Assembly (NCBI GenBank): GCA_964016885.1
Contig: OZ024759.1
Coordinates: forward strand, 36,518,001 to 36,582,000
Source: Eledone cirrhosa
Taxonomy: Eukaryota
Length of the DNA stretch: 64,000 nt
Direction of reading: 5' to 3'
Position numbers and translations under genes: made by a program. The notes beneath the pieces were generated by a model. It did no database searches and had not been told where the DNA came from. It was given only the letters and a program-made list of their open reading frames with translations. This document shows positions 1 through 58,341 of the stretch, in pieces; within the stretch, counting starts at the first letter, position 1, and each line of letters begins with the position of its first letter.

Positions 1-2626
1 TTATCACCTCTTCCTTCCTTCCTCAGTCGACGTTATCACCCCTTCCTTCCTCAGTCGACGTTATCACCCCTTCCTTCCTTCCTCAGTTGACGTTATCACC
101 CCTTCCTTCCTCAGTCGACGTTATCACCCCTTCCTTCCTTTCTCAGTCGTCGTTATCACCCCTTCCTTCCTTCCTCAGTTGACGTTATCACCCCTTCCTT
201 CCTTCCTCAGTTGACGTTATCACCCCTTCCTTCCTTCCTCAGTTGACGTTATCACCTCTTCCTTCCTAAGTTGACGTTATCACCCCTTCCTTCCTCAGTC
301 GATTTATCACCCCTTCCTTCCTCAGTCGACGTTATCACCCCTTCCTTCCTTCCTCAGTTGACGTTATCACCTCTTCCTTCCTTCCTAAGTTGACGTTATC
401 ACCCCTTCCTTCCTTCCTCCCTCAGTTGACGTTATCACCCCTTCCTTCCTAAGTTGACGTTATCACCCCTTCCTTCCTAAGTCGACGTTATCACCCCTTC
501 CTTCCTCAGTCGACGTTATCGCCCCTTTCTTCCTCAGTCGACGTTATCGCCCCTTCCTTCCTAAGTCGACGTTATCACCCCTTCCTTCCTCAGTCGACGT
601 TATCATCCCTTCCTTCCTCAGTCGACGTTATCACGCCTTCCTCCTTCCGAAGTCGACGTTATCACCCCTTCCTTCCTTCCTAAGTTAACGTTATCACCCC
701 TTCCTTCCTAAGTCGACGTTATCACCCCTTCCTTCCTCAGTCGACGTTATCGCCCCTTCCTTCCTTCCTAAGTCGACGTTATCACCCCTTCCTTCCTAAG
801 TTGACGTTATCACCCCTTCCTTCCTCAGTCGACGTTATCACCCCTTCCTTCCTCACTCGACGTTATCGCCCCTTCCTTCCTTCCTAAGTCGACGTTATCA
901 CCCCTTCCTTCCTAAGTTGACGTTATCACCCCTTCCTTCCTCAGTCGACGTTATCACCCCTTCCTTCCTAAGTTGACGTTATCACCCCTTCCTTCCTAAG
1001 TCGACGTTATCGCCCCTTCCTTCCTTCCTAAGTCGACTTTATCACCCCTTCCTTCCTCAGTCGACGTTATCGCCCCTTCCTAAGTCGACGTTATGACCCC
1101 TTCCTTTCTCAGTCGACGTTATCACCCCTTCCTTCCTTCCTAAGTCGACGTTATCACCCTGTCCTTCCTAAGTCGACGTTATCACCCCGTCCTTCCTCAG
1201 TCGACGTTATCACCCCTTCCTTCCTAAGTCGACGTTATCACCCTGTCCTTCCTCAGTCGACGTTATCACCCCTTCCTTCCTAAGTCGATTTTATCACCCC
1301 GTCCTTCCTCAGTCGACGTTATCGCCCCTTCCTTCCTCAGTCGACGTTATCGCCCCTTCCTTCCTAAGTCGACGTTATCGCCCCTTCCTTCCTTCCTAAG
1401 TTGACGTTATCACCCCTTCCTTCCTTCCTAAGTCGACTTTATCACCCCTTCCTTCCTAAGTCGACGTTATCGCCCCTTCCTTCCTTCCTAAGTTGACGTT
1501 ATCACCCCTTCCTTCCTTCCTAAGTCGACTTTATCACCCCTTCCTTCCTCAGTCGACGTTATCGCCCCTTCCTGCCTAAGTCGACGTTATGACCCCTTCC
1601 TTTCTCAGTCGACGTTATCACCCCTTCCTTCCTTCCTAAGTCGACGTTATCACCCTGTCCTTCCTAAGTCGACGTTATCACCCCGTCCTTCCTCAGTCGA
1701 CGTTATCACCCCTTCCTTCCTAAGTCGACGTTATCACCCTGTCCTTCCTCAGTCGACGTTATCACCCCTTCCTTCCTAAGTCGATTTTATCACCCCGTCC
1801 TTCCTCAGTCGACGTTATCGCCCCTTCCTTCCTCAGTCGACGTTATCGCCCCTTCCTTCCTAAGTCGACGTTATCGCCCCTTCCTTCCTTCCTAAGTTGA
1901 CGTTATCACCCCTTCCTTCCTTCCTAAGTCGACTTTATCACCCCTTCCTTCCTAAGTCGACGTTATCGCCCCTTCCTTCCTTCCTAAGTTGACGTTATCA
2001 CCCCTTCCTTCCTTCCTAAGTCGACTTTATCACCCCTTCCTTCCTCAGTCGACGTTATCGCCCCTTCCTGCCTAAGTCGACGTTATGACCCCTTCCTTTC
2101 TCAGTCGACGTTATCACCCCTTCCTTCCTTCCTAAGTCGACGTTATCACCCTGTCCTTCCTAAGTCGACGTTATCACCCCGTCCTTCCTCAGTCGACGTT
2201 ATCACCCCTTCCTTCCTAAGTCGACGTTATCACCCTGTCCTTCCTCAGTCGACGTTATCACCCCTTCCTTCCTAAGTCGATTTTATCACCCCGTCCTTCC
2301 TCAGTCGACGTTATCGCCCCTTCCTTCCTCAGTCGACGTTATCGCCCCTTCCTTCCTAAGTCGACGTTATCGCCCCTTCCTTCCTTCCTAAGTTGACGTT
2401 ATCACCCCTTCCTTCCTTCCTAAGTCGACTTTATCACCCCTTCCTTCCTCAGTCGACGTTATCGCCCCTTCCTTCCTAAGTCGACGTTATGACCCCTTCC
2501 TTTCTCAGTCGACGTTATCACCCCTTCCTTCCTCAGTCGACGTTATGACCCCTTCCTTTCTCAGTCGACGTTATCACCCCTTCCTTCCTTCCTCAGTCGA
2601 CGTCATCACCCCTTCCTTCCTCAGTC
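1..2626. repeat. Satellite, 26/30-bp monomer GTCGACGTTATCACCCC(TTCC)2-3T(C/A)A, with a 496-bp higher-order period; runs off the left edge
   Basis: About 95 tandem monomers. Variant TCGATTTTATC recurs at 1285, 1781 and 2277, 496 bp apart. Confidence 0.95.
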
Positions 2627-2749
2627 ATCTCTTGTGACGGACAAAAACACAAGAGTACTATATATATAATATTTTATAATACTTTATAATATTGTGTAGT
2701 GAGAATATATATATATATTTATATATAAATACATAATCGGAGAAAGCTG

Positions 2750-2783
<34 letters not shown>

Positions 2784-2849
2784 CATCGTCATCCGGTGGC
2801 CTCAGCCGATATCAACTTAACAATTGATCTCTATGTGGGTCTGTCATTC

Positions 2850-3099
2850 ATTACCGTTTTTTCAATGCCAGAATCTCTCGAAATGACATTGGGATAGGAG
2901 AGCTTGCGCCCCCTGTTATTAGTGACTGCTTATGGTTTCCAAAGCACTAATGGGGACACAGCCTCATAGGTGGCACGATGGCACTGGCCAGCAAAATTTA
3001 CTCTCCTTTTACGTACAATGACAGATAGGCACGGGAGGCCAGCATATATCTCTCTCAAAGTCAGATCTGAATGTGTTGAAGCAGGCGAGTGTAGGTGAC

Positions 3100-3134
<35 letters not shown>

Positions 3135-3270
3135 CAGCAGTAGTAGTAGTAGTAGTATGAGTAGTAGTGTAAGTGCCATCAAGGTGCTTTTGTTGTTTGG
3201 ATGAAAGCATCCATGTTTCACTTCCATATAACAAGACTGGTTGAACTGTTAGTTGGAAGAGTGTGATGTT
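2850..3270 (-). mobile_element. Degenerate RTE-type LINE C-terminal fragment, interrupted by a (TAG)n microsatellite
   Basis: Translation TLFQLTVQPVLLYGSETW..KHLDGTYT[repeat]YTRLL; LLYGSETW is a typical post-RT motif of RTE-clade LINEs. Confidence 0.7.
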
Positions 3271-3370
3271 GGTATGGTTGGATCCTGGGCCTTCCGCAGT
3301 ACCAAGGTTTGTGGTCGATGAAATATGAAAAATAAGGTAAAACTTATTGTTTTGTTTTGTCATTCTTACT

Positions 3371-3586
3371 GGTGGATTGGCAGAATCGGTAGAGCACCAC
3401 ACACCATGCTTTACAGCATAGAGTTACGGCCCTTTACGATCTGAGTTCAAATCCCGCCGAGGTTAGCGTTGCCTTTCATCCATACAGGGTCGATAAAATA
3501 AAGTACCAGTAATGTACTGGGGTCAATTTAATCGACTTTCCCCTCCCCCAAAATTGCTGGCCTTGTGCCTAAAGTAGAAACAATTC
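3371..3586 (+). mobile_element. tRNA-derived SINE family A (other copies near 7584-7770, 29725-29925, 30406-30630, 31500-31680(-), 31903-32085, 60049-60237)
   Basis: Box A-like TGGCAGAATCGG and box B GAGTTCAAATCC, a shared body TTGCCTTTCATCC..GGGTCGATAAAATAAAGTACCAGT and an (ATT)n tail; many dispersed copies in the window. Confidence 0.85.
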
Positions 3587-3764
3587 TTACTTTACTCCAA
3601 TTCCCCCAGTATATCTCCTGTTTACGTTGTACCAGCTTTCCCAATACATTATTATATGAGGTTGTTATAGTTTACTGGAAGCATTGTGGATTATGGAAGA
3701 TGGAAAGTGGTTCTGGTTGAGAAGCTGTTGGAGACTTCCTACACACACACTTTTCATCATCATT

Positions 3765-3813
<49 letters not shown>

Positions 3814-3941
3814 GTGTGTGTACATGTATGAGAGTGTGTATGTATATTGTCTACATTTACTGCTCATGACCTCCTTCTTATGACACCCCCCACTCCCCTA
3901 GTCACAACACCATGCTGTAAAAGACAGATATAGATATATAT

Positions 3942-4009
<68 letters not shown>

Positions 4010-4175
4010 TATATATATATATCATCATCATCGTTTAACGTCTAGCTTCCTCGCTAGCATGGGTTATATATATATATATAGAGAGAGAGAAATGGCTTCT
4101 ACAGGACTAGAACTGTTTCATTCAGAAGAAACCACCAGAAAATGTATAAATACCACCGTATTACATTGACAGTCT

Positions 4176-4226
4176 GCTTTCCTGATGATTTCTCCCAAAT
4201 GAAACAGTTCTAGTCCTGTAGAAACC
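4176..4226 (+). ncRNA. Minimal type I hammerhead ribozyme motif (Penelope-like), family 2
   Basis: TTTC-CTGATGA(4182-4188)-12 nt-GAAACAG(4201)-loop-CTGTA-GAAA. Stem III is ACAG/CTGT, stem I is TTTC/GAAA, the cleavage triplet is GUA; stem II is weak. Confidence 0.6.
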
Positions 4227-4375
4227 ATTTCTATATTAAATATTTATACTCTGCTTTGTATTGAGTACCTTACTTACTGTGGTTAGCTCTGATAGAACCC
4301 AGGATAAACATATATATCTATCTATATATATATATCATCATCATCATCATTTTACGTCCGCTTTTCCCTGCTTAC

Positions 4376-4407
<32 letters not shown>

Positions 4408-4601
4408 GGAGAGAAAGAGAGAGATGTAATTATATATACAAAGTGTCCCCTAAAAATGTAAACACACTATGATTACCTGTACAGGCAATATTTATTAGAA
4501 TGCAGTTGAAGTGTGTATACATTTTTAGGGCATATATATGTGTATATATATATATATGTGTGTGTGTATATATATATATGTGTGTGTGTGTGTATATATA
4601 T

Positions 4602-4719
4602 ATAGGAACGAGTAGGACCCCGACGGCTGAGCTCAAGCCGTTTCGACGGCTAATTCTGGACCCAGAATTAGCTGTCGAAACGGCTTGAGCTCAGCCGTCG
4701 GGGTCCTACTCATTCCTAT
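4602..4719. repeat. Near-perfect ~118-bp palindrome made of the 3' half of a hammerhead-bearing repeat
   Basis: GAGTAGGACCCCGACGGCTGAGCTCAAGCCGTTTCGACGGCTAATTCTGG..CCAGAATTAGCTGTCGAAACGGCTTGAGCTCAGCCGTCGGGGTCCTACTC. Confidence 0.9.
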
Positions 4720-5113
4720 TACCCACTCTACTACCCTAAGTATTGAGTACTTTGGTGCGTTATGGTCCACTTGGTTCCTTACCACATTTTCCTTCGTTAT
4801 ATATATATGTTGTGAGTTCAATTCTCAGACCGGGTGATGTGTTGTTTCCTTGAGCAAGACACTTTATTTCACATTGCTCCAGTTTACTCAGCTGTAGAAA
4901 TGAGATGATAGGGACTGGGGTCCATATCATTCCACTGTAAAGTGGTCGTGGAGGTGCCACGGCAAAAAAGCACCCAGCACTCACTGTAAATGAGGTTGGT
5001 GTTAGGTAGGGCATCTAGCTGTAGAAATCAAGCCAAAATCAGTTCCCGTCCCACCCTTGCAAGCAGGGAAAAGTGGACGTAAAATGAAATGATGATGATA
5101 CACACTTTTCATT

Positions 5114-5151
<38 letters not shown>

Positions 5152-5379
5152 TATATATATACACACACAAACACAAATGTATGTGCATGTGTGTATGTGG
5201 CTTGATTTTCAATGTCCAAATAATTGAGGTCATCCTTCTGGTACACTACACCACCCTCTCTCTCCCACTACTTTCTCAGTAAAACAGCAACAATTGTCCA
5301 CACCTTCCCAATTCAAATACCTATACACCAAATTTTACAATGACTGTACACTGGACAAGGGAGTTTTAAACAACCCCAG

Positions 5380-5595
5380 ACAGGCCTCTCTAGCCTTTGA
5401 AAGGCTCAGATAAGCCTCTGTAGTTTTTGATATCCTCAGATAAGCTACTGTTGTTTTTGAAAGGCTCAGATAGGCCTCTGTAAGGTTTTGAAAGGTTCGA
5501 ACAAGCCTCTGTAGTTTTTAAAAGGTTCAGATAGGCCTCTGTAGCTTTTGCAAGGCTCAGTCAGGCTTCTGTAGGTTTTGAAAGGTTTGAAAAGA
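5380..5595. repeat. Degenerate ~30-bp minisatellite (AAAGGCTCAGATAGGCCTCTGTAGTTTTTG), about 7 copies
   Basis: Tandem copies visible in the sequence. Confidence 0.8.
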
Positions 5596-6950
5596 TGATA
5601 TTTTTTTAACCCTTTAGCATTCACATTACTCTATATATACTATTATATTTTCATGGTAAAGGCTTTACCTCGCATAATTATCTCACATAATATCGAATCT
5701 ATGAGATTTTGAAAGTATTTATTTTGAGAACAATACCTTAACATCAGTTTAAGCGACCAGTTACAGCCAGTTTCAACAGAATGAGGTAGAATGAGTTTGA
5801 ATATTAAAGGGTTAAATCAGCTGTATCCAGCCAGAATTCTCTCACCTCTTTCTGTTCAAACCAGCCATAACTGGCTGCTCATATTTATGTTACGGTATTC
5901 TTTTCAAAATAAATAATATCAAATTCTCATAGATTCGATATTATGTGAGATAAAGCCTTTACAGTAGAAATACAATAGTATATATGTTGTTACAGCTCAC
6001 ACCTATGCAGGTTTAGCTGGCCTCCTCCAAAGTATATCTCGTTGGAGGTGTCTTGGGTAATTTAATGATAGGGGCCTCAGTCCTATCATCTCATTTCTAC
6101 AGCTGAGTAAACTGGAACAACAAGAAATAAAGTGTCTTGCTCAAGGAAACAACACATCACCCGGTCCGAGAATTGAACTCACAACTTTTCGATTACAAGC
6201 CCAATGCTCTAACCACTAAGCCATGTGCCTGCACTGAATAGTATATATGGAGTAATATATGCAGTGAATAGTATATATGGAGTAATGTAAATGGTAAAAG
6301 GTTCAACACCCATCTCAAACTTCATACACTATCTGTGTCTTTATATCTCCTATATAGGTGTGAGATATGGACCACATACAGCTGATATATTAAGGCTCTT
6401 GAGACCCTTAATATTCAGTGACCCCAGAAGATCCTTCCAGTCTCCTGTTAAAGTTAAAGTCTGTTCTATTATCCAGGGGTTTATCAGGCTGGTGCGTACC
6501 CTAGTTTCTTCCACATTAACGCTTTAGCATTTTAAAGGCCCCACTTGATCACGAATGACCATGGTTAAGTTACCTTCCGAGGCACAAGCCTGGGCAAGGT
6601 TTGTTTTGTGGAAGACCAACAATCACTCATACATACCAGTCTCCTATCTCCATGCCATCGATGTTGTCCAAGGGAAAGGCAATGACCGATACAGCTTGGC
6701 ACCAGTGTGTGTGTGTATCTGGGGTGGGTAACAACAGTTAAAAAAAGGTACTCAATACATTAGTAGAGTATAGGCATCTTTATTATATATAGAAATTACT
6801 TCTCCGGGACTAGAACTGTTTCATTTATATAGAAATATATATATAAGCTATATAAGAGGATGTACATTTAAAACTGTCTCTCTTCTTTATAGTATACTAT
6901 ATGCTATGTATGTATATTTTACGATGATGCCGTAAACGGAATCGTACAAA

Positions 6951-6958
6951 TTTGGCGC
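6951..6958 (+). promoter_or_regulatory. E2F consensus site TTTGGCGC upstream of the PRIM1 start codon
   Basis: Matches TTTSSCGC, about 60 nt before the ATG, in a locally CpG-containing patch. Replication genes are classic E2F targets. Confidence 0.5.
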
Positions 6959-7013
6959 TAAATTTCAGTTATCGTGGGAAGAAAAAAAGTCAACAACATA
7001 ATTGACTGTAACA

Positions 7014-7125
7014 ATGCTTTCCTCTACCAAATACGATCCTGAGATTTTACCAGATCTATTGCCAGTTTACTACAAACATCTTTTTCCATTTAATCCGTAT
7101 TGTATATGGCTTCGATACGGTGTCC
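7014..7125 (+). CDS. PRIM1: PRIM1 exon 1
   Basis: [37 protein letters not shown]; donor GTGAGT. Confidence 0.92.
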
Positions 7126-10100
7126 GTGAGTTTGTTTCTCAATATTTTATAAAATTTTAACTGATGTTTGTATCGTCAGAGACTTGATGACGGTTCGAGC
7201 AGGTCTTCCTCTACTGCCAGTGCTGGATTTTCCGTTGTGTTTCAGCACAGGGTCCCGTTTACTAGAGAGAGGGGCATCTTCCTGTCCCAAACATTTTTAC
7301 GGTGAATTTTTCAAATGTTTGGGGCCTCATAACTTGTCTAGCACAGGGCCTCATTTGTCCTAAATCCGACACTGTCTACTGCATCTCTCGTGAGTTAGTT
7401 CCCACAATAGTAGCTTATGTAAAAATTCCTGCTTATTTCTCTTACAAAAAAGAGTCAGGACCCCGACGGCTGAGCTCCGCCGTCGGGGTCCTGAATCTTT
7501 TCATATTACTCACTCTACTACCCCAAGGTTGTAGCGTACCTGAGCATTGTACACAATAATTTCATCATTATTATTATATATGATCTGAGTTCAAATCCCG
7601 CCGAGGTTAACTTTGCCTTTCTTCCTTACGGGGTCGATAAAATATAGTACCATTAATACATTGAGATAGTACCAGTAATACACTGAGATAGTACCAATAA
7701 TGCACTGAGATAGTACCAGTAATACACTGAAATAATTGCTGGCCTTGTGCCAAAAGTAGAAACTATTATTATATAGAACACCCCAATGGATTTCAGTGGT
7801 AAAAAAAAGATTTCTCGTTTTTTTTTTCATTTAAAATATATATGAGGGGCGAATGAAAAGTTTTGGTCCGCACACAGAAAACAAATATTTATACAAATGA
7901 AATTTTGTCTGTGAAATCTGTGACATGTTCTTATAGTGCTAGCCAGGTTTCATGGTCTAAACACTTTCTCATTTCTTTTTGGAGATATTTAAAGTTCGTA
8001 TAGAGACATCAGGGCAGCAAGAAGCTGACCATCGATCACAGGAAAGTATAGCTGGACAGATTTCATGGCAGGAGACCCAAAGGTAGACCCCGAGCATGAT
8101 AGTTGGATGACATCCATGAGCTTGGCTGGTCTCACTTGGGGATCCAGTTGGAGACGGTTGCTACTGACAGGACCCACTGGAAGGAGTGTTTGAGGACCCT
8201 GCCCCCACGACTCGCTCAGGAACAAGTGGGCGAAGAAGATTTCTTAAAGTTGATGTACTCAGGTGTTTTATAAAAAATGTCGAAACTCTAGTATTGAGCA
8301 GTGATCAAGCATCTGCAGTTGTAAGGCGTTTAGCCTTTTTAGAGGCTGTTCTAGTGATAAGTTTCCTCATTTTTATATGTATTTATTATTATTATTATTG
8401 TTATTATTTATTCATGTCTTTTCACATACACTCTTTTTTTCTCTTTACAGCCCAGAAAAGTTATTTTTCTCTGAGAGAATTTTCTTTCACCCTCAAAGAT
8501 GATCTTTATATTCGGTACCAGTCTTTTATTGACCAAAAGGATCTTGAATCAGAAATCAGCAAGTTATGTCCTTACAAAATCGATATTGGTGCTGTATTTT
8601 CATTCACGGTAATATATATTTATTGATATACTGTATTTCCCGGTGCTGAAGACGCATCGTCCTCAAGGACGCACCCTAATTTTGACAACCAAAAACTTGA
8701 AAAAAAAAAATAAACAACCTTTGGCCTCCAGGACGCATGGTAGATTTTGGAGACTTATTTTAGGAAAATTGTAGCGTCTTTGACGCCAGGAAATACGGTA
8801 ATCTAATTGTAAAGTGGTAGTGTTACTGCCATGACAAAACACACCCAGTACACTCTGTAAAGTGGTAGTGCTGCTGCCATGATAAAATGTACCCAGTTCA
8901 CCCTGTAAAGTGGTAATGTTGTTGCCACAATAAAACACACACAGTACACCCTGTAAAATAGTACTGTTGGTGCCATGATAAAACATACTCAGTACACACT
9001 ATAAAGTGGTAGTGTTACTGTTATGATAAACACACCCAGTACATTCTATAGAGTAATAGTGCTATTGAGATGATAAAATGTACCCAGTATATCCTGTGAG
9101 ATGTTACAGAAGTCATCTAGCTGTAGAAACCATGGTAGTTTCTATGTACTATACATGCACCTTTGATGAGTTGTAGTGCACCTGAGCACTGTACACAATA
9201 ATTTCATTATATTATATATTATTCATTATATTGTTCTCAAAATAAATAATATCAAAATCTCATAGATTCAATATTATGTGAAGTAAAACCTTTACCGTGA
9301 AAATATAGTATATATAGAGTAATGTAAATGGTAATGAGGTAAACCATCATTTAACATGTATGTACATGTAATATTTGACATAAATTGTAAACTTACTGCA
9401 CAAAATTAGACTTAGAAGCAGAGGTCCACTACATATTAACCCTTTAGCATTTACATTACTCTATATATGCTATTGTATTTTCACAGTAAAGGCTTTACCT
9501 CACATAATATCTCACATAACATTTACATTACTCTATATATACTATTGTATTTTCACAGTAAAGGCTTTACCTCACATAATATCTCACATAACATTTACAT
9601 TACTCTCTATATACTATTGTATTTTAACAGTAAAGGCTTTACCTCACATAATATCTCACATAACATTTACATTACTCTCTATATACTATTGTATTTTCAC
9701 AGTAAAGGCTTTACCTCACATAATATCTCACATAACATTTACATTACTCTCTATATACTATTGTATTTTAACAGTAAAGGCTTTACCTCACATAATATCT
9801 CACATAACATTTACATTACTCTCTATATACTATTGTATTTTAACAGTAAAGGCTTTACCTCACATAATATCTCACATAACATTTACATTACTCTCTATAT
9901 ATACTATTGTATTTTAACAGTAAAGGCTTTACCTCACATAATATCTCACATAACATTTACATTACTCTATATATACTATTGTATTTTCACAGTAAAGGCT
10001 TTACCTCACATAATATCTCACATAATATCGAATCTATGAGATTTTGATATTATTTATTTTGAAAACAATACCTTAATGTCAGTTTGAGCAGCCGGTACAG

Positions 10101-11292
10101 CCAGTTTAAATGCTAAAGGATTAAAATAATCACTGAGTGTTGGTTTAAATGCCTTACACAAGCAGGGGTCAACTACATGTTCACCTTTTAGTGACCAACC
10201 TGACCAAAACCCGCTCTGGTTCTATCAAATAAAACCACCCATTTTTAAAGGTTTCCAATTTAAATTAAAAAATCTTTCAATATAATTTTATATAAGAACT
10301 TTACATTAAGTTACTATCTTAGTAATGAAATAATTAATAATTTTAGTAAATCCCTCAAAATTCTTTATTAATTAATTGAAATAGAATGTATTTCATTAGA
10401 AATGTGGTAATGAAAAGGTTAAATTAATCATTGCTCTGTCTTCCAGCCAAGATTGCACAGGGCCATCAAAGCCAGTTGTTTTGTGGCCGAAGAAAAGGAA
10501 TTAGTTTTTGATATTGATATGACTGATTACGATGATGTAAGGAACTGCTGCTCGTAAGATTTTCCTCTCTCTTCTTACTTATTATACATTATTTTCTTCT
10601 TCTTCTACTTATTCATGAGAAGGTCATGGGGGTAGAGTCCTCAAACACTCCTTCAAATGGATGAAAAGCAACTGTCTCCAACTGATTCCGCTGGTTCCCC
10701 ATGTGAGACCAGCCATGCCCATGGATGTTATCCAACTATTTAAATGCTAAAGGTTTAAAGTTAGTTATTCAAGGGTGGATTGAATAGTTCATAGTTTAAC
10801 TATGAAGGAGCGATGTTAGAGCTGTGAAATATTGCATGCATTAAATTCAACTCTTATTAATAACTGCATTGTTTCTTTTAGGGACTATGTTGAAAAATAA
10901 ACTTCATTTGATCATTCCATGAGAGTATCTTGGTCAGCCTATGAACTTTTCAGCTGTCCCTTGTATAACTAAATCCCTTCAAATACTTTGAAAATTATTG
11001 ATACAGTCTTTTATTAGAAATATGGTAATGAAAGGTTTGAAGTTTTCTAATTTAATCTTAATTATTTGTATATAATTATTTTCCAAATGTTTCAGTGGTG
11101 CCCAGATTTGTAAGAAATGTTGGCCCTTAATGATTATAGCAATAAAAATCCTGGATAAAGCATTGAGGGGTAAGTTTCTCACTCCTTATATAATTATTGT
11201 TGTTTCTTTGACCCATAACTGGATTTATATATATATATATATCATCATCATCATTGTTTAACGTCCATCTTCCACGACACATATGTATATAT

Positions 11293-11346
<54 letters not shown>

Positions 11347-12885
11347 GATGTCTCCCAAAGTTGTATACACACTTCAACAGCATTCTAATAAATATTGCTT
11401 GTACAGGTAATTAAAGTGGGTATACATTTTTGGGGACACTGTTTTCTGTATCTATCCTTTCTGTACTCCTGAAGAAGGGCTAAAGCCAGACATTGTACTT
11501 TCTTTCCCCCTTTTCCATATAAAGCGTGAAACTAATAAGATTTTCTGTAGCTCTGTTTGTTATTTCCTTAAACTATATATATATATATAAAGGATGGTGT
11601 GGTAAGATACCAGGTGGACCAAAACACACCAGAGTACTCAATACTTAGGGTAGTAGAGTGGGTAATAGGAAAAGAGTCAGGACTCCGACGACCTAGCTGT
11701 TTCGACAGCTAGATCCGAACTAAGCCACCAGTATTAGAACGGCAGGAATCTAACTGAACTTATCAAGGAGTACAGTCCATATTTGGGCATGCAGTCTGAT
11801 TTGGAATGTTATGTACATATTTTATTACCTTCCAGATCACTGATCACTCCCTGTGACAGACAAGAAAAACAACAAACTTTTAAGATTTTTTGCTTACATT
11901 TTTTTTGCTTTGACCACATGCCCATATATGGACTGTACCCGTTGATAAGTTCAGCTAGATTCCCGCCGCTCTAATATTGGTGGCTTAGTTTGGATCTAGC
12001 TGTCGAAACAGCCGGAGCTCAGCCGTCGGGGTCCTGAATCTTTATGTATGTATATATATATATCAAAAGTATATATTGAGTTAGAAACCCACAATAGTCC
12101 CTTATAATTAAAATAGCTCAAGAAAAAATTTTCCGAGCCTTATAATATAATATAATAAAGAGAGACAAACACAGATATATACACATATATGTGTTGAAAT
12201 CACAATGGATGTAAACCACCATGTATATATATATATATATTATATTTCTTTAAAGATTATGTTTTTTAGATTTTTAAGTGTTTATAATTATCTTAATTGG
12301 CGTATTTATGTTTGTTCTCAGATGATTTTGGATTTGAACACCTTCTGTGGATATATTCTGGGCGTCGAGGGGTCCATTGTTGGGTGTGTGACAGCATGGC
12401 TCGTAAACTCACCTCCAGTGCCAGATCAGCCATTGCTGAATACCTGAGTATTGTCAAGGTTGGTAATTGTTATGTTGTAATGCTTTGTAAAGTGGTAGTG
12501 TTAGAGCCATGATAAATTACACCCAGTACACTCTGTAAAGTAGCAGTGTAAGAGCCATAATAAATTACACCCAGTACACTCTGTAAAGTGGTAGTGTTAG
12601 AGCCATGATAAATGATACCCAGTACACTGTGATATTTCATTGTGCTGTTGAATTAGCTCCCTTGTCTCTGTGTGAGTGGCTTCATGTCCAATATCCAGGT
12701 CATTGGTTGGGTCTTGGAATTCCACATGAATGGCCAGTAAGAAACCCTGTGATTTTTTTCTTGTGGAGGTGGGTGAAGAAAGAAGTTTATGGCTCAAAAC
12801 TGCCTCAATTATAGGAACGTATTTATCATGTATCGACAGAGGGGAAAATACACGTGTATTCAGTCAGCCATCTTGGAGATTTGGG

Positions 12886-12921
<36 letters not shown>

Positions 12922-13851
12922 TTGTATTATATTTCTTTATTTTTAGGGTGGTGAAAACAATGCAAAGAAGGTTGTTCTACAGGAACCAATCCATCCATTT
13001 ATTGAGTGAGTTGAAAATGTTCTATTATCTCTATTATATTCCCTGCTCTCTTATTGGTTTATTTACTATAACAATTTCCACTGTTAGACTCACAGAGACA
13101 TTCATACACACAAATACAGACACACAGGCATAGATACACACACACACATACATGCGTGTGTGCATGGACACTGTATCCTTCAAAACTTCCATGCTTCTCG
13201 AAATTCGACAACACAACCTGATATTCCCCTTCCATACACACACACACGTCACATGTGGTGTGTATCTATGTGTATATCATGACTCATACACTGTTCACTT
13301 CCCTGACATTTGTACATTATTCTATCTACTATACATGCACCTTTGATGAGTTGTAGTGCACCTGAGCACTACACAATAGTTTTCATTATTATTTTAAATG
13401 ATCTAACTATTTCCCATTCTGTTTTGTTATAGGAGATCAGTAGAGATGATTGAAGAGTATTTTGAAGGCTATGCCCTTGTCGATCAAGATATTTTGCGCG
13501 ATGATAATATTGGTGAAATTATCAATTTGATACCAGAAAAAAATATCCTTTGATTTAAAAATTTTTTTCAAAATGTTTTTAATCGTTATTCCACGTCGTC
13601 ATCATTTAATGTCTGTTATTCCACGCTTGCATGGGTTAGATGGATTATCATGTCATGAAGTGGTTGGATGGCCACGTCTTGCTTATATGGATCTGTATTT
13701 TGGTTTGGTTTCTATGGCTGAATGCACTTCCTAATGCCAACCATATCACAGTGTAGACTGAGTACTTTTTATCTTGAGGACACCCTGTGTGTCGTCATCA
13801 TCATCATCATCATCGTTTAACGTCCATATTCCACGCTCGCATGGGTTTGTC

Positions 13852-13882
<31 letters not shown>

Positions 13883-14823
13883 GTCATATACAATGTCAGA
13901 TATATATATACAATGTCACTGGACCGAGATCTTGGGCGCTACACAGTAATATAGAAGACCCGCCTTACCTAAGTACAAAAGTGAAACCTACTACAGTCAG
14001 TAGGCACCTCTAACAAAATACACCCCCACCCCATCCACACCACCCCTTTCAATGTAAAGTTATGTTGGTACCACAACATCCAGTCCGAAACAAATGAGGT
14101 CGTGTAGGTGTCACGACAAAAAAACACACAGTCCACGCTGTAATGTAGCCGTGTAGGTAACACGGTAAAAACCTCCCAGTCCACACTGTAAACGTGGTTG
14201 GTGTTAGGAAGGGCATCCAGCCGTAGAAAACCCGCCAGACAGTCCTATGCGAGCAAGACAACCACTCTTGCCTCAAGTGGGAAAACTCCCGTCCAAACCC
14301 ATGCAAGCGTGGAAGATGGACGTTAAACGATGATGATGATATATATATGAAGGCGCATGGCTTAGTGGTTAGAGCATTGGGCTTGCAATCAAAAGGTTGT
14401 GAGTTCAATTCTCGGACCGGGTGATGTGTTGTTTCCTTGAGCAAGACACTTTATTTCACGTTGCTCCAGTTTACTCAGCTGTAGAAATGAGATGATAGGG
14501 ACTGCGGTCCCTATCATTAAATCACCCAAGACACCTCCAACGATTTTACCTTAATGAGACACATCGCAGTGACAGTCTACAGAAATTCTTGATGTCTACA
14601 AACAACTCCATATCCAGGTGGAATGTCCTCAAAAAGGAACTGGAAAGGCCGGTAAGTAGTAGTAGTGGTGGTGGTGGTGGTAGTAGTGGTGGTGGTAGCA
14701 GCAGTAGTGGTGGTGGTAGTAGCAGTAGTAGTGATGGTGGTAGTAGTAGTAGTGGTGGTGGTAGTAGCAGTAGTAGTGGTGGTGGTAGTAGCAGTAGTAG
14801 TGGTGGTGGTGGTGGTAGTGTCG

Positions 14824-14854
<31 letters not shown>

Positions 14855-15897
14855 CAGTAGTTGTAGTAGTGGTGGTAGTAGCAGTAGTAGTAGTAGTGGT
14901 GATGGTGGTGGTGGTGGTAGTAGTAGTGGTGGTGGTGGTAGTAATAGCAGTAGTAGTAGTGGTAGTAGCAGTAGTAGTAGTGGTGGTGGTGGTGGTAGCA
15001 GTAGTAGTAGTATTAACCCTTTAGCATTTAAACCGGCCATATCCGGCCAGAATTCTTTCTGTTCAAACTGGCTTTAACTGGCCATTCATACTGATGTTAA
15101 GGTATAGTTCTCAAAATAAATGATATGAAAATCTCATAGATTCGATATTATGTGAGGTAAAGCCTTTACTGTGAAAATACAATAGTATATATAGAGTAAT
15201 GTAAATGTTATGTGAGGTAAAGCCTTTACTGTGAAAATACAATAGTATATATAGAGTAATGTAAATGTTATGTGAGGTAAAGCCTTTACTGTGAAAATAC
15301 AATAGTATATATAGAGTAATGTAAATGTTATGTGAGGTAAAGCCTTTACTGTGAAAATACAATAGTATATATAGAGTAATGTAAATGTTATGTGAGGTAA
15401 AGCCTTTACTGTGAAAATACAATAGTATATATAGAGTAATGTAAATGTTATGTGAGGTAAAGCCTTTACTGTGAAAATACAATAGTATATATAGAGTAAT
15501 GTAAATGTTATGTGAGGTAAAGCCTTTACTGTGAAAATACAATAGTATATATAGAGTAATGTAAATGTTATGTGAGGTAAAGCCTTTACTGTGAAAATAC
15601 AATAGTATATATAGAGTAATGTAAATGGTATGTGAGGTAAAGCCTTTACTGTGAAAATACAATAGTATATATAGAGTAATGTAAATGGTAAAGGGTTAAC
15701 AGCAGTGTATTTATAATTATTCAGAATTTCAGTTTCAGAACAAATTTTCTTCACTTCTTTCAGTGGTAGTAGTAGTAGTAGTGGTGGTGGTGGTAGTTGT
15801 AGAAGTAGTAGCAGTAGTAGGAGGAGGAGTAGCTGTAGTACTATTTCTGTATCTACTATCTCTCTTTCTCTCCTCCCCTCTTTTCTCTGTATGTATA

Positions 15898-15929
<32 letters not shown>

Positions 15930-18900
15930 GAAATTATTGTGTACAGTGCTCAGGTGCACTACAACTCATCAAAGGTGCATGTATAGTACATAGAATAATG
16001 TACAAATGTCAGGAAAATAAACAGTGTATGAGTCATGATATAATAACAATAACGAAATATTGTGCACAGTGCCCAGGTGCACCACAACTCATCAAAAAAG
16101 TGCATGTACAGTACATAGGGCAATGTACAAACATCAGTAAAATGAACAGTGCACGAGTCATGATACACACGTGTGCATGTGTATGGAAGGGGTACATCAG
16201 GTGTAGTTTTGGCGTATTTTGGGAAGCATGAGTGTCTTAAAGGATGCAGTGTCTCGGCAGCTAACAATTGACGCAGGCAGTTTGTTCCATGCTTCAGCAA
16301 CTCTGAGCGTGAAAAAATGTCTGCGAAAGTCATGGGAGCTGTGCTGTTTTCTTATCTTGTAGGCATGTCCACGTGTGTTAGACACATGGAGATCAAAGAG
16401 GCGCTCAGGGTTGCAGTTGGCGAGATGGTTAAAAACTTTGTGGGTATTCACCAAGTCCATTGCCAGACGTCGGAGCTTCAATGAATCCATGCCCAGGGAA
16501 GCAAGGCGTTCAGAGTATGGTAGGTGTCTGATGGAGGGTATGCGCTTGGTTGCACGTCTCTGAACAGTTTCCAGGAGGTCAATGTTCCGAGCAAGATAGG
16601 GGTTCCAGACTGATGATGCGAATTCCAAGTGTGGTCGCACCATAGCTGTATACAGTTTTAAATAGATGGCTGGAGAGCGGCTAACAAAGGTCTTGCTGAG
16701 TGATGCCAAGACACCCTCGGCCTTCTTGACAATCTTAGAGACATGCTTTGTCCAACGCAAATCGTTGCTGACAGTAATGCCCAGGTCACGTTCACAAGAG
16801 GACTTTTTGATGTCAGTGTTGTGGAGGGAGTATGTGGACGCTGGATTTTTCCTTCCAAAATGCATGGTGGTACACTTGTCCACAGCCAGCTTCAGTTGCC
16901 AGTCTGTGATCCATTGCTGCATTGTGTCCAGGTCTGATTGTAGGAAAGAGTTGTAAATTTCAGGATCAGTCCTTTTGATTTCAAGGTACAGCTTGATGTC
17001 ATCTGCATATTTTAGTACCGTGGCATTCTGTAAGTTGGCATCTATGTCATTAATATATGCCACAAACAAAAGAGGACCAAGAACAGATCCCTGTGGTACA
17101 CCAGATGACATCTCATATGGTGAAGAATGCTGTCCTAGAACCGTGACTACTTCCTTTCGGCTGAGAATGAAGGATTTCAGCCAGTCGAAAAGATCATCCC
17201 TCACACCCATTGCAGAGAGTTTTGCCATAAGTCTTTTGTGTGGCACAGAATTAAAAGCCTTAGCAAAGTCAAGGTAAACAACATCCACCCATGAGCCGCT
17301 GTCAGTGATCCGGGTGATGTCCTCAAGAAACTCGATAAGCTGATCACAGCAGCTGGAGTTAGGGATAAATCCAAACTGTGAGGGCCGGATGAGGCTGTGA
17401 GAGCTCCAGAAGTTCCAAAGTGTTTCTCTGACACAGGATTCCATCAGTTTGGCCATACAGCTAGTAAGACTGACTGGACGATAGTTGACAGGTGACATGC
17501 GGTTGCCCTTTTTTTTTTTATATATATTTGTGGGCATGTGTTTGTATATCACTTTAGCATTTACATTATTCTATATATATACTATTGTATTTTCATGGTA
17601 AAGGCTTTACCTTACTTAATATCTCACATAATATTGAATCTATGAGATTTTAATATTATTTATTTTGAGAACAATACCCTAACATAAGTATGAGGGGCCA
17701 GTTACAACTGGTTATGACCAGTTTGAACAGAAAGAGGTGAGAGAATTCTGGCCAGATATGGCTGGTTTAAATGCTAGAGGGATATTGTATATATTATATC
17801 TTTATATCTAACTCCATATAATATATATATTGTTTCAGGGTGTCCATGCTGGTCGAGTGTTGAAGGAGATTATGTTACAGTACTGCTACCCACGGCTGGA
17901 TATTAATGTGACTAAAGGGGTCAACCATCTACTAAAGTCACCCTTTAGTGTCCATCCGAAAACAGGTATGTTTCTTCTTTAACCCTTTAACATTTATATT
18001 ACTCTATATATACTATTGTATTTTTGTGGTAAAGGCTTTACCTCGCATAATATCGAATCTATGAGATTTTGATGTTGTTTATTTTGAGAACTATACCTTA
18101 ACATCAGTATGAGTGGCCGGTTACAGCTGGTTTGGACAGAAAGAGGTAAGAGACTTCTGGCCGGATATGGCCTGTTTAAATGCTAAAGGGTTGTACTGTG
18201 AAGTTTGTGGCCTAGTAGTAAGGCTGTTGAGATTCATAATCATTAGGTTGTGGGTTTGATTCTTAGGCTACTGTGTTGTCTTCTGCAAGATCTTTATGGG
18301 ACTAATCAGCCCATGTACACATGTACATAGGTGACAAAACTATGTTTCTGAAGTTAAGGGCCATATATAGATATACAAAATACATTATGTGTATATATAT
18401 ATATATATGTTGTATGGTTGCTAGGATGCGTCCAGAATTTCCTTCGAGGTCACTAGACTTGCGAATCCTGAGTCAGGTTTGATCCACAAACAGATCACAC
18501 CTCGAGCTGTTCGCCTGAGAAACAATTGTAATATGTAATAAATTGTGTTACCGATACATCACTTATTCTTCGTTTTCCATTTTATATATATATATATATA
18601 TGGAACAGCAACATCACAACTTACAATTCAGGACAAAATGAAAACACACACGCATATAGAATAAACAACCAACCAGTAACATGTAAATAAACGAATATAA
18701 ACACACACAGACACCCGGATGTAACACATGCGCAAACTAAGCACACAACACACACATAAAAACAAGATGGCGTAGGACAGAACAAAAAAAAAAAACAGGA
18801 AAGGCACAAAAACAAAGAAAAGAATCCCCACTCACTGAAGAGGTCACAGGATGTGTGACGAAAGAACTTTGACAATATATAAACAATCATCTGGTTGTGG

Positions 18901-20371
18901 AACCAACCAACCAACCGGAAATTTATAAATTCCTAAATTTATAAATTTATTATAATAAATTGAAGTGAAAGCAACTGGTGCGTGTTTTTCTTATTGGCAA
19001 CATGACCCTCCCAAAGTATAACAATATCGGTTTCAACACACGTTTTCAGATAAAGAATCTTGCTAAAAAAATTCAGAAACGAAATATATATATATATATA
19101 TATGTGCTCGGTGTGTAGGAAAGGCGTAGGTAGAAACTCCATTTTATGTCCTAAATGCAAAGTATGGGTGCATAAAAGATGTAGTGGGATCACAGGTAAG
19201 CTAACTAAGAACATAGATTTTACATGTGGCCGGTGCTCTGGTGCAATAAGTAGCAGCAAGTGCCCACAAAATACTAGCTCTTTCAATTGCGCAGAGGGTT
19301 CTATAGAAATAGTGGACAGCTTCCGTTACCTGGGCGATAAAATTAGCAGTGGGGGAGGGTGCTCTGAAAGTACAGTAGCTAGAGTCAGAACTGGTTGGAA
19401 AAAGTTCAGAGAGCTTATACCACTATTAGCTGCTAAAGGGTTCTCCCTAAAAATGAAAGGCAGGTTGTACGATGCCTGCATACGAACAGCAATGTTGCAT
19501 GGCAGTGAGACCTGGGCATTGTGTGCAGAGGATATACGCAGACTAGAGAGGAACGAAGCTTGCATGCTCTGCTGGATGTGTAACAGTAATATACGTGAAC
19601 GGCAAAGCATAAACGAACTAAGGAAAAAATTAGAAATAAGAGGGATCAGATGTTGTTTACTCGAGAGAAGGCTACGTTGGTATGGACACGTGATGCGCAT
19701 GAAAGTCGATAGCTGTATAACAAAGTGCAGGGCAATAAAGATAGACGGTAGCCACGGAATAGGCAGACCTAGAAAAACCTGGGACGAGCTGATAAACTCC
19801 GACCTCACACACTTACACCTCTCCAAGACAATGTCACTGGACCGAGACCTTTGGCGGTACTCAGTAACAGAGAAGACCCTCCTTATCTAAATACATAGTA
19901 AAACCTACTACAGCCAGTAGGCATCTCTAACAAAATACACCCCGTCCCACCTCCACCCCATCCACACCACCCCGTTCTATGTAAAGTTATGTTGGTACCG
20001 CGCCATCCAGGCCGAAACAAATTAGATCGTGTAGGTGTCACGACAAAAAAACACACAGTCCACGCTGTAATGTGGCCGTGTAGGCAACACGGTAAAAACC
20101 TCCCAGTCCCACACTGTAAATGTGGTTGGTGTTAGGAAGGGCATCCAACTGTAGAAAACCTGCCAGACAGTTCTATGCGAGCAAGACAATCACTCTTGCC
20201 TCAAGTGGGACTACCCCCGTCCAAACCCATGCAAGCGTGGAACACGGACGTTAAACGTTGATGATGATATATATATATAGGGCTTTCCTGATGATTTCCT
20301 TCAAATGAAACTGTTCTAGACTTGTAGAAGCCATTACTATATTAAATAAATAAATATATATATATATATAT

Positions 20372-21519: not shown

Positions 21520-24500
21520 CATACATATATATATATACATATATATATATACACATATATACATATACATACATATATATATACATACATACATACATAT
21601 ATACATACATATATACATGGTGGCTGCCAACTCGTTTTCGAGTACGGCCACTACTTTATATCCATATAGGAGAACCCCTACCGATGCGCTGAACGAGCGT
21701 GACTTTTTAGTCCAGCCAGCGACTTGAAAACTCTGGTACAAACACTACACTTGTGACAATTATTGACACATAGTGCTGGGCCCATGGTACCATGTGATGA
21801 CAAGTGCAGAGAGATCTCCAGATATAAAGCAATGCCTGTGCCGTGAAGCTTTTATAGTGAGCAAAGGCACTGCACAAAGCCAGTCCCACTCTCTTAACCA
21901 AGATGATATTTACCAAAAAGAAGAACAAATCAACATCATTGGATACCATCAGGGTTGCAGGTGTTATATCAGAGTTTTCCTTCTCCTAGAATTCTGCCTT
22001 GACAAAGGCTAAGGGGTCATCTCTCCCGGTGATTTTGGATGGCCATTGACTCTTAAGAGCTTCTTTGACAGGTTTTGTTTTTAGTCCTGCAGGATGTCCA
22101 AAGTCACCCTCCTCACCAAGATACCTTGGTGGGGTTGCCAGTTTAGTCGCCAACGACCCGACCATGAGGCAGGTTGTACTGGGATACATGTTACCAGTAG
22201 CACCAACTGGTGACCTGACATACATATATATATATATATATACACACACATACATACACACACATATATATATATTGAGTTTTAGATGAACCCGCTTAAG
22301 GTGAAAGCAGAAATTCATTGCTAATCTTACTAATAATAAATATATCATCATCATCATCATCATCATCAGGTTTAGCGTCCGTGTTCCACGCTTGCATGGG
22401 TTTGGACGGGGGTTTTCCCACTTGAGGCAAGAGTGGTTGTCTTGCTCGCATAGGACTGTCTGGCGGGTTTTCTACAGTTGGATGCCCTTCCTAACACCAA
22501 CCACATTTACAGTGTGGGGCTGGGAGGTTTTTACCGTGTTGCCTACACGGCCACATTACAGCGTGGACTGTCTGGCGGGTTTTCTACAGCTGGATGCCCT
22601 TCCTAACACCAACCACATTTACAGTGTGGGGCTGGGAGGTTTTTACCGTGTTGCCTACACGGCCACATTTACAGCGTGGACTGTGTGTTTTTTGTCGTGA
22701 CACCTACACGATCTCATTTGTTTCGGCCTGGATGTTGTGGGACCAACATAACTGTACATTGAAAGGGGCGGTGTGGATGGGGTGGAGGTGGTGGGACGGG
22801 GGGGTGTTTTGATAGAGATGCCTACTGACTGTAGTAGGTTTTTACTTTGTATTTAGGTAAGGCGGGTCTTCTCTATTACTGAGTACCGCCAAAGGTCTCG
22901 GTCCAGTGACATTGTCTTGGAGAGGTGTAAGCGTGTGAGGTCGGAATTTATCAGCTTGTCCCATGTTTTTCTGGGTCTGCCTACTCCGTGGCTACCGTCT
23001 ATCTTTATTGCCCTGCACTTTGTTATACAGCTGTCGTCTTTCATGCGCATCACGTGACCGTACCAACGTAGCCTTCTCTCGAGTAAACAACATCTGATCC
23101 CTCTTATTTCTAATTTTTTCCTTAGTTCGTTTATGCTTTGCCGTTCACGTATATTACTATTGCACATCCAGCGGAGCATGCAAGCTTCGTTCCTCTCTAG
23201 TCTGCGTATATCCTCTGCACACAATGCCCAGGTCTCACTGCCATGCAGCATTGCTGTTCGTATGCAGGCATCGTATAACCTGCCTTTCATTTTTAGGGAG
23301 AACCCTCTAGCGGCTAATAGTGGTATAAGCTCTCTGAACTTTTTCCATCCAGTTCTGACTCTAGCTACTGTACTTTCAGAGCACCCTCCCCCACTGCTGA
23401 TTTTGTCACCCAGGTAACGGAAGCTGTCCACTATTTCTATAGAACCCTCTGCGCAGTTGAAGGAGCTAGTATTTTGTGGGCACTTGCTGCTACTTATTGC
23501 ACCAGAGCACCGGCCACATGTAAAATCTATGTTCTTAGTTAGCTTACCTGTGATCCCACTACATCTTTTATGCACCCATACTTTGCATTTGGGACATAAA
23601 ATTGAGTTTCTACCTATATATATATATATATATATATAAACACATACATGCATACATATATATATACACACACATACATACACACATATATATATACAAC
23701 ACACACATGTATATGAAAAATACTGTCTTTCTCCTCAGGTCGTGTTTGTGTCCCAATAGATCCAACAGATGTCGAAAACTTTGATCCATTTGCTGTTCCC
23801 ACAATTTCGTAAGTAACAACTAAATACAACTTCAATACTTGTGTGTGGGACCTTGGGCAAGTATCTCTACGATAGCTTCGGTTTGACCAGTTTGGTAGAC
23901 AGAAGCTGTGTGGATGCTTTTCCTGTGCCACCATAAAATACATCCAGTACATACTGTAAAGCAGGGGTTGGCAATCTTTTCGGGTTTGTGTGCTTTATTG
24001 CTATGCTGTGTCTCGTCAGCAGGTCACATAGCTATACTGTGTCTCGTCAGCAGGTTACATAGCTATGCTGTGTCTCGTCTGTGGACCACATAGCTATGCT
24101 GTGTCTCATCTGTGGACCACATAGCTATGCTGTGACTCGTCAGCAGGCCACATAGCTATGCAGTGTCTCATCTGTGGACCACATAGCTATGCAGTGTCTC
24201 GTCTGTGGACCACATAGCTATGCTGTGTCTCGTCTGTGGACCACATAGCTATGCTGTGACTCGTCAGCAGGCCACATAGCTATGCAGTGTCTCATCTGTG
24301 GACCACATAGCTATGCAGTGTCTCATCTGTGGACCACATGGCTATGCAGTGTCTCATCTGTGGACCACATAGCTATGCTGTGTCTCATCTGTGGACCACA
24401 TAGCTATGCTGTGTCTCATCTGTGGACCACATAGCTATGCTGTGTCTCATCTGTGAACCACATAGCTATGCAGTGGCTCATCTGTGGACCACATAGCTAT

Positions 24501-57800: not shown

Positions 57801-58341
57801 TGTATGTATGTATATATATCAGGATGGACTCAGTTTGAAACTGGTGAGACCCTTACTTAACAGAGTACTCAATACTTGGGGTAGTAGAGTATGGTTATAT
57901 TATAAAGAGTCGGTGATCCCGGTGGCTGAGTTCTTGCCATTTCAACAGCATACCAATCCTGAATATGAAGAATTAAATAGGTTTGTTATTGACAGCAGTC
58001 ATAAATCCATTGTACTGTCTACGTTGTGTATGTGCAGTTCTAATGTGTTGTACTGTCTACGTTGTGTATGTGCAGTTCTAATGTGTTGTACTGTCTATGA
58101 TGTTTGTCATACTTATAATCTGTTGTTTTGTCATTTCAGAGTGTATTGAGGAAGGTAACTGCTGAAGATGCACCTAAAATCTCAAACCCGATCATGACAG
58201 CTTTACTACAGATGTTCAACACATCTTGTGGCAAATCTGGAGGAGTTCAAGAAGATGCTCTGCTCTGTGTGTCAACACTTGTTGAAGGTACATACAAATA
58301 TATATATATATATATGAGACACGTGTGTGTGTGTGTATGTA

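Follow-up and report, generated by a model that had tools for sequence, protein, structure and literature searches.

Intron 4 of PRIM1 in Eledone cirrhosa carries a fold-back whose two inverted arms each resemble a hammerhead ribozyme. The question raised by this locus is what kind of element left the fold-back in the gene and whether its arms are more than remnants. The window analysed here is the whole 64,000-nt stretch in which the locus lies (contig OZ024759.1, positions 36,518,001 to 36,582,000). With a probability of roughly 0.88, the fold-back represents the end, truncated and 5'-inverted, of a Hydra-clade Penelope-like element (PLE) that belongs to an old subfamily and was inserted into a TA microsatellite, its arms being decayed predicted type I hammerheads that are likely inactive.

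The features of the locus are listed in Table 1. The placement in PRIM1 intron 4 given in a preliminary description of this DNA is borne out by the flanking exons, which match DNA_primase_S on the forward strand, have splice sites and are joined in frame at GT 11170 and AG 12321 according to the exon translations. Two of five exons matched this Pfam family (exons 1-3 gave no match); the exon numbers are taken from the exon translations, on the premise that no non-coding exon lies upstream. The whole insertion (11590-12043) is larger than the segment first delimited (11674..12041) and includes an 80-nt tail on the inverted side. The arms are inverted relative to each other and share 84.7% identity across 124 nt, and every core element previously listed for them is found in the window sequence. 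In the forward arm, stem I (11937-11941) is followed by TTGATAA (11942-11948, with U3 at 11942 and A8 at 11947), G10.1 (11949), C11.1 (12004), GAAAC (12005-12009), GTC ending at C12027 and stem I' (12028-12032). In the inverted arm, TTGATAA starts from 11766, C17 is at 11687 and stem I' occupies 11686-11682; a 6-nt deletion takes out the palindromic loop III. Of the mismatches first described, both the G-G at the foot of stem I (forward arm) and the A-C in stem III (both arms) are confirmed. The palindromic loop III attributed to a related copy, TGAGCTCA, is present, but it lies at 4686-4693 in a copy without the 5' half of the core. Stem II, described as branched, is predicted to be an extended helix with a bulge and not a multibranch structure.

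Three other pLTR fragments of the same family occur in the window (4604-4803, 7449-7527 and 57803-57949). None has a complete core, and the first is a near-perfect palindrome. The window also contains minisatellite arrays of 31 bp (23873 onward), 72 bp (9373-10094) and 60 bp (15025-15810) and a 777-nt inverted repeat with 96% complementarity (19127-19903 / 22840-23616).

Table 1. Features of the fold-back locus in PRIM1 intron 4 and of a related fragment in the window.
Feature	Position	Strand	Basis or remarks
Related palindromic pLTR fragment, younger subfamily	4604..4803	.	3' half of core only, with tail
PRIM1 exon 4, host gene	11096..11169	+	Pfam PF01896, E-value: 6.5e-4; GT donor 11170
(TA)n target microsatellite, left flank	11574..11589	.	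Sequence
80-nt tail, inverted pLTR copy	11590..11670	-	Between family 3' ends 17 and 97 nt past C17
Inverted hammerhead-like arm	11682..11771	-	U3-A8 core; stem III A-C mismatch; loop III deletion; predicted cut after 11687
Inversion junction, inverted family sequence just upstream of + arm	11797..11832	-	BLAST against oriented copies L009, L012, L019 and L028
5'-truncated remnant of 3' UTR / pLTR, upstream of hammerhead	11824..11936	+	85-91% identity to L009, L012, L019, L024 and L028
Forward hammerhead-like arm	11937..12032	+	G-G and A-C mismatches; predicted cut after C12027
Short element 3' end	12033..12043	+	16 nt past C17
Degenerate (TA)n target, right flank	12044..12063	.	Sequence
PRIM1 exon 5, host gene, 3' end approximate	12322..12458	+	PF01896, E-value: 1.4e-13; AG acceptor 12320-12321

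Exact matches to the core number approximately 7,700 in the 3.0-Gb genome searched: 5,771 with U3-A8, 1,830 with C3 (nearly all of them with A8) and 102 with G8, with small differences at the first bases between the search patterns for the three counts. No match (0, as compared with 5,771) was obtained with reversed patterns as a control, so the core matches are not due to chance. The window's own old clade accounts for 391 exact matches. A query with the forward arm returned 3,123 first-look candidates, and the 40 among them that were scored had 91-100% identity; the window element is 91-95% identical to its top 39 matches, a divergence about as in its siblings. Most family copies are short and non-coding, and in 30 that were examined the 5' ends are ragged and the 3' ends are fixed in (TA)n.

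The preliminary description had proposed a search for adjacent GIY-YIG/RT ORFs in longer copies, and these exist: the pLTR lies approximately 1.1-1.4 kb downstream of a single ORF encoding RT and GIY-YIG. One of the 30 copies (L015/L031) runs upstream into a decayed RT-thumb / CxC / GIY-YIG frame. When this frame was used as a query, 370 matches were found, and open frames of 780-860 codons are present in many of them. At L061/L062 (G000:C1:437197500-437217499; 437.20-437.22 Mb), an inverted 5' copy is followed by five core starts spaced 3,531 bp apart. The four full 3,531-bp units have intact ORFs and differ from one another by 0-1 nt, which suggests, as far as sequence can indicate, very recent activity and reverse transcription of more than one unit. 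Each unit has a 1.1-kb 3' UTR; in L061 a 716-codon open frame after Met is followed 1,105 nt downstream by the core on the same strand. The motifs of this ORF are RWR (36), DKT (116), YRDD, CNCPDRSIC (571; CxCx5C), VIY..YIG, CNLC (669; CxxC) and CKH (697; CxH), with GxKF/Y and CX2-5CxxC both absent from the motif reading. The diagnostics of the Hydra clade in the available part of PMC8557442 are RWK, DKT, a CxCx5C linker, CxxC and CxH in EN and no GxKF/Y, and the L061 ORF reads along the Hydra alignment in the same part of that paper by eye. Judged by these motifs, the insertion into (TA)n and the alignment reading, the element is a member of the Hydra clade. A homologue search found 2,216 relatives (approximately 40% identity). 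Two full ORFs had no match in Pfam; a Pfam GIY-YIG match (E-value: 0.003) comes from another, more distant PLE fragment in L010. This locus has more distant GIY-YIG PLE fragments on both sides of its pLTR copy (842-1333 and 1840-2304; 37% identity to the L061 ORF).

The pLTR of the young L061 element is approximately 75-80% identical to the window element. The window's own subfamily adjoins decayed ORFs of the same type in L031 (on both sides) and L039, and such old-subfamily ORFs have 60-73% protein identity to the young ORF. A single ORF with RT plus GIY-YIG at its C terminus, pLTRs, tandem and 5'-inverted structure and a tail are the features of an EN+ PLE, and all are present in this family. 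A non-autonomous retrozyme or MITE-like unit, with the inverted ends as its limits, would account for arms that resemble terminal inverted repeats and for the many short, non-coding copies. It is nevertheless very improbable in view of the ragged 5' ends, the varying inversion points (98-5,161 bp between cores), the lack of a fixed short tandem unit in the focal PLE family and the continuation of its sequence into an RT-endonuclease ORF. Classification of the focal family as a non-LTR retrozyme was rejected, its unit being 3.5 kb and coding. Of the two affiliations originally offered, Penelope-like or retrozyme, the first is retained, with an autonomous Hydra-clade parent, and the second is dropped.

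The fold-back geometry, originally considered special, is routine for this family. Among the 100 matches listed from the first 66 Mb of C1, neighbours no more than 6 kb apart comprise 23 minus/plus, 1 plus/minus and 2 tandem pairs (p=3e-6), and opposite-strand pairs are reported for Schistosoma PLEs in the available part of PMC4209133. In 120 distinct copies with room for the measurement, (TA)n is reached 17 nt past C17 in 40, 97 nt past it in 38 and elsewhere in 28 (106/120 in all), the other 14 having no (TA)n within 160 nt of C17. Independent assemblies have their (TA)n loose ends at these two positions as well, with 80 nt between them; among the holders listed in a search of sequencing runs, none was an RNA data set. 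In the window, the forward arm uses the short end and the inverted arm uses the long end with the tail. Inverted 5' copies and tails have been described for PLEs (PMC8557442, available part). For an Anolis PLE in vitro, two internal RT start sites define the tail and both nicked strands are extended (PMC11167929).

These ends can be placed in a model for the formation of the fold-back. The element endonuclease would nick (TA)n on both strands, and both strands of the self-complementary (TA)n could then act as primers. Reverse transcription would begin within an uncut or circular RNA, 17 and 97 nt beyond the ribozyme site. The forward arm with its short end would come from one primer, and the inverted arm with its long end and tail from the other. 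As inserted copies extend beyond the cut site, the template is presumably uncut or circularised RNA; either form agrees with the near-identical five-core array. The hammerhead of an intact element would cleave tandem 3.5-kb transcripts into unit-length pieces.

The pLTR carries a predicted type I hammerhead-like motif with U3-A8. Across seven lineages (at least 3 copies each; 137 distinct copies), 1 of the 14 core positions varies as compared with 49 of 121 columns (p=0.005), a value that treats columns as independent, which they are not, and that includes inflated conservation of the 5' half of the core, which was fixed in the patterns used to fetch many of the loci. The type I core (U4 G5 A6 N7 A9, G12 A13 A14, A15.1-U16.1, H17 and G10.1-C11.1) is fixed in the seven lineages, with N7 free, and is present in both window arms; position 7 takes all four letters. 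Varying columns among the lineages amount to 21/33 in loop II, 10/11 in the 3' flank and 3/15 in the 5' flank. The core is kept above its flanks, as would be expected of a hammerhead family, except at position 3, which is C in approximately one quarter of matches. In an alignment of 20 hand-picked copies, 87.8% of cells are paired and three helix II pairs are changed on both sides; covariation is 0.122, as compared with 0.063 when shuffled (0/500), in copies that span very few lineage splits. Pair 10.2-11.2 is unpaired in 18 of the 20 rows, mostly as a mismatch.

In L092, a natural copy of the youngest subfamily, the hammerhead is the unconstrained minimum-energy fold, and it is within 5 kcal/mol of the minimum in 13 of 17 other non-window copies. 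RNAalifold on the 20 copies predicts a competing fold that has only stem I in common with the hammerhead, and the single-arm folding z-scores are weak (-0.1 for the youngest copy). A search of window positions 1-20000 and four loci against Rfam found no hammerhead family at an E-value of 10 or less, in agreement with the suggestion that standard searches miss this hammerhead. The U3-A8 core had been singled out as unusual; U3-A8 already occurs in Schistosoma PLEs (PMC4209133, available part), and in the available part of PMC3088659 it is described as a natural covariation earlier shown to be active in vitro.

For the arms in the window, the hammerhead fold is predicted to lie above the minimum-energy fold by 13.4 kcal/mol (forward arm) and 15.0 kcal/mol (inverted arm), and within the fold-back the forward hammerhead lies 99.5 kcal/mol above it. 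Together with the damage to both arms, these values support the initial suspicion that the copies may be inactive; on such predictions both would be neutral copies, probably dead. The forward arm is sense to PRIM1 and lies after its antisense arm, which was suggested to sequester it. Sequestration is energetically expected (approximately 100 kcal/mol), but a role for it in PRIM1 is unsupported, and it looks like a side effect of the way in which the element inserted. The ribozyme fold would lose to the long fold-back in PRIM1 pre-mRNA, so that the insertion is likely neutral. A domesticated PRIM1 switch, in which the antisense arm blocks a ribozyme otherwise able to cut the pre-mRNA, would make use of this arm order and of the energetic cost of the hammerhead within the fold-back. 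Such a switch is highly unlikely, however, as minus/plus geometry is the family's default product, both arms have private disabling changes and the copy shows much the same divergence as its siblings. The PRIM1 locus itself is ordinary transposon debris.

The stem I difference between the arms, initially interpreted as compensatory, is a private double change. The stem I states genome-wide are C/G (3953), T/G (78), C/A (59) and T/A (5). The five T/A copies compare with approximately 1.2 expected (about four times the independent expectation; Fisher p=0.009) and fall in different subfamilies. Mixed copy ages could yield this excess. With 5/4,095 copies scattered over subfamilies, ACTCC/GGAGT was rejected as a lineage covariation.

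Pair 3-8 occurs in four states. C3·A8 mismatches make up approximately 24% of core matches (approximately 1,800 copies), so the core is not strictly kept. At least 92 of the 100 listed C3 matches have G7. Amplified PLE lineages with C3·A8 (L144-L163) almost all carry G7, and an old lineage of the same PLE (L174-L193) carries G8, both as C3-G8 and as U3·G8. Among the first 100 of the 102 G8 matches, 16 are C3-G8. For a pLTR tree of 47 rows, positions 3, 7 and 8 were masked, L031 was left out and three long branches were flagged; 20 G8 places had been picked for their old background. In this tree, 20 G8 rows form one clade (100/98) of 6 C3-G8 and 14 U3·G8 rows. Two further U3·G8 rows lie at the base of the younger clade, and C3·A8 rows branch off below the youngest U3-A8 rows. 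In three of the six C3-G8 rows stem I is shorter by one C, which a deletion could explain. The protein tree groups the old lineages (100/97). Since the root is not resolved in this tree with six outgroups, the order of the pair 3-8 changes is not established. All Hydra hammerheads in the available part of File S2 of PMC8557442 are C3-G8, so that the simplest guess is a path from C3-G8 via U3·G8 to U3-A8.

A second repeat family bears on the same pair. It consists of non-coding 591-bp units in tandem, each of which bears a single intact type I U3-A8 hammerhead motif, and exact matches number 6,051 (loci L112-L131, for example L116:1506-2096; G000:C1:2952255-2955274). Helix III is short and palindromic, copies end in (TA)n 75-81 nt after C17, and 5' inversions occur. 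As a short non-coding tandem unit with one hammerhead each, the repeat has the form of a non-LTR retrozyme, and this retrozyme-like family is probably moved by PLE machinery. Its hammerhead and that of the PLE agree in the U3-A8 core and the bulged helix II base but differ in their stems. BLAST of the 591-bp unit against the PLE found no similarity, and a covariance model built from the 20 PLE copies matched the repeat's hammerhead at the right place (E-value: 0.29). This value is too weak for homology of the two hammerheads to be claimed. At position 3, the repeat has 6,051 U3-A8 matches as compared with 6 with C3, a uniformity that may simply reflect youth.

The PLE family can tentatively be read as the record of a ribozyme core pair walking through four states while amplifying, from old C3-G8 and U3·G8 through large U3-A8 lineages and the numerous C3·A8 copies to a youngest lineage back at U3-A8. 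Cleavage would then be dispensable or weakly selected in vivo, or the mismatch would be tolerated, possibly via a shift of register that lets G7 act as G8. Single mutants at pair 3-8 of the Anolis PLE hammerhead abolished cleavage, the substitutions being other than C3·A8 (PMC11167929). If the four-state reading is true, the natural alleles make the role of PLE hammerheads directly testable. Alternatively, the hammerhead could be vestigial, catalysis having been lost or become dispensable and the region being kept as a protein-binding or pLTR promoter structure; this would concern catalysis only and would leave the PLE origin untouched. It would fit the growth of the C3·A8 lineages without an excess of G8, insertions that run beyond the cut site, the predicted competing fold and the conserved 5' flank, and hammerhead mutants of the Anolis PLE left in vitro insertion unaffected (PMC11167929). 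A vestigial motif is nonetheless rather unlikely, given that the lineages agree at the other 13 core positions while position 7 varies freely, that the youngest lineages are U3-A8 and nested within C3·A8 lineages on the tree, and that the 591-bp repeat keeps U3-A8.

In the literature, U3-A8 in PLEs was found only in PMC4209133 and U3-A8 otherwise in PMC3088659, as far as the available parts of these sources extend, and the available part of the O. vulgaris repeat paper does not mention hammerheads. The same survey, with Repbase, Dfam and the supplement of PMC4209133 outside its scope, found no Hydra hammerhead combining U3-A8, a long helix II and a helix III of 5-6 bp, no four-state pair 3-8 series in one PLE family, no octopus retrozyme and no 591-bp U3-A8 repeat. 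More than 13,000 hammerhead-like motifs (approximately 7,700 in the PLE and 6,050 retrozyme-like) go undetected by Rfam. The predicted folds suggest that Hydra-clade PLEs can carry large U3-A8 hammerheads, possibly competent as monomers. The matched natural allelic series at pair 3-8, on one backbone and accompanied by an apparently very young intact element, offers a means of asking whether cleavage matters to PLE transposition. The importance of the family is modest.

Of known systems, the Hydra-clade PLEs (Craig et al. 2021, PMC8557442, available part) share the C-terminal GIY-YIG, RW(K/R), DKT and CxCx5C linker, (TA)n targets, 5'-inverted copies, the tail and a type I hammerhead near the 3' end. 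Their hammerheads in File S2 differ in having CUGANGA, a short helix II and a helix III of 3-4 bp, whereas the hammerhead described here has U3-A8, a 56-nt helix II domain and a helix III of 5-6 bp. Hydra-1_Obim, an octopus family in the same source, has another hammerhead motif and is 2.5 kb, as compared with the 3.5-kb unit described here. For PLEs, both U3-A8 cores and hammerhead pairs on opposite strands have been published before: the Cercyon PLE of Schistosoma mansoni (Cervera and de la Pena 2014, PMC4209133, available part) has a U3-A8 core with about 1,300 hits and opposite-strand pairs 100-700 bp apart. The Cercyon hammerheads, however, are minimal and of the dimer type, without a stable helix III. 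Helix III in the present family could form in a monomer, like that of the fungal and protist PLE hammerheads in the same part of PMC4209133. The Anolis PAc PLE of the Poseidon clade (Frangieh et al. 2024, PMC11167929) likewise has two RT start sites downstream of the hammerhead and nicks both strands, but it belongs to another clade and has a canonical C3-G8 and a tail of 30-40 nt rather than 80 nt. Non-LTR retrozymes (PMC7229834 and bioRxiv 10.64898/2026.07.22.740005, available parts) also place type I hammerheads in dispersed animal repeats, and the 591-bp repeat fits this class. Animal retrozymes are described there as approximately 170-400 nt long, whereas the focal element is part of a longer, autonomous PLE.
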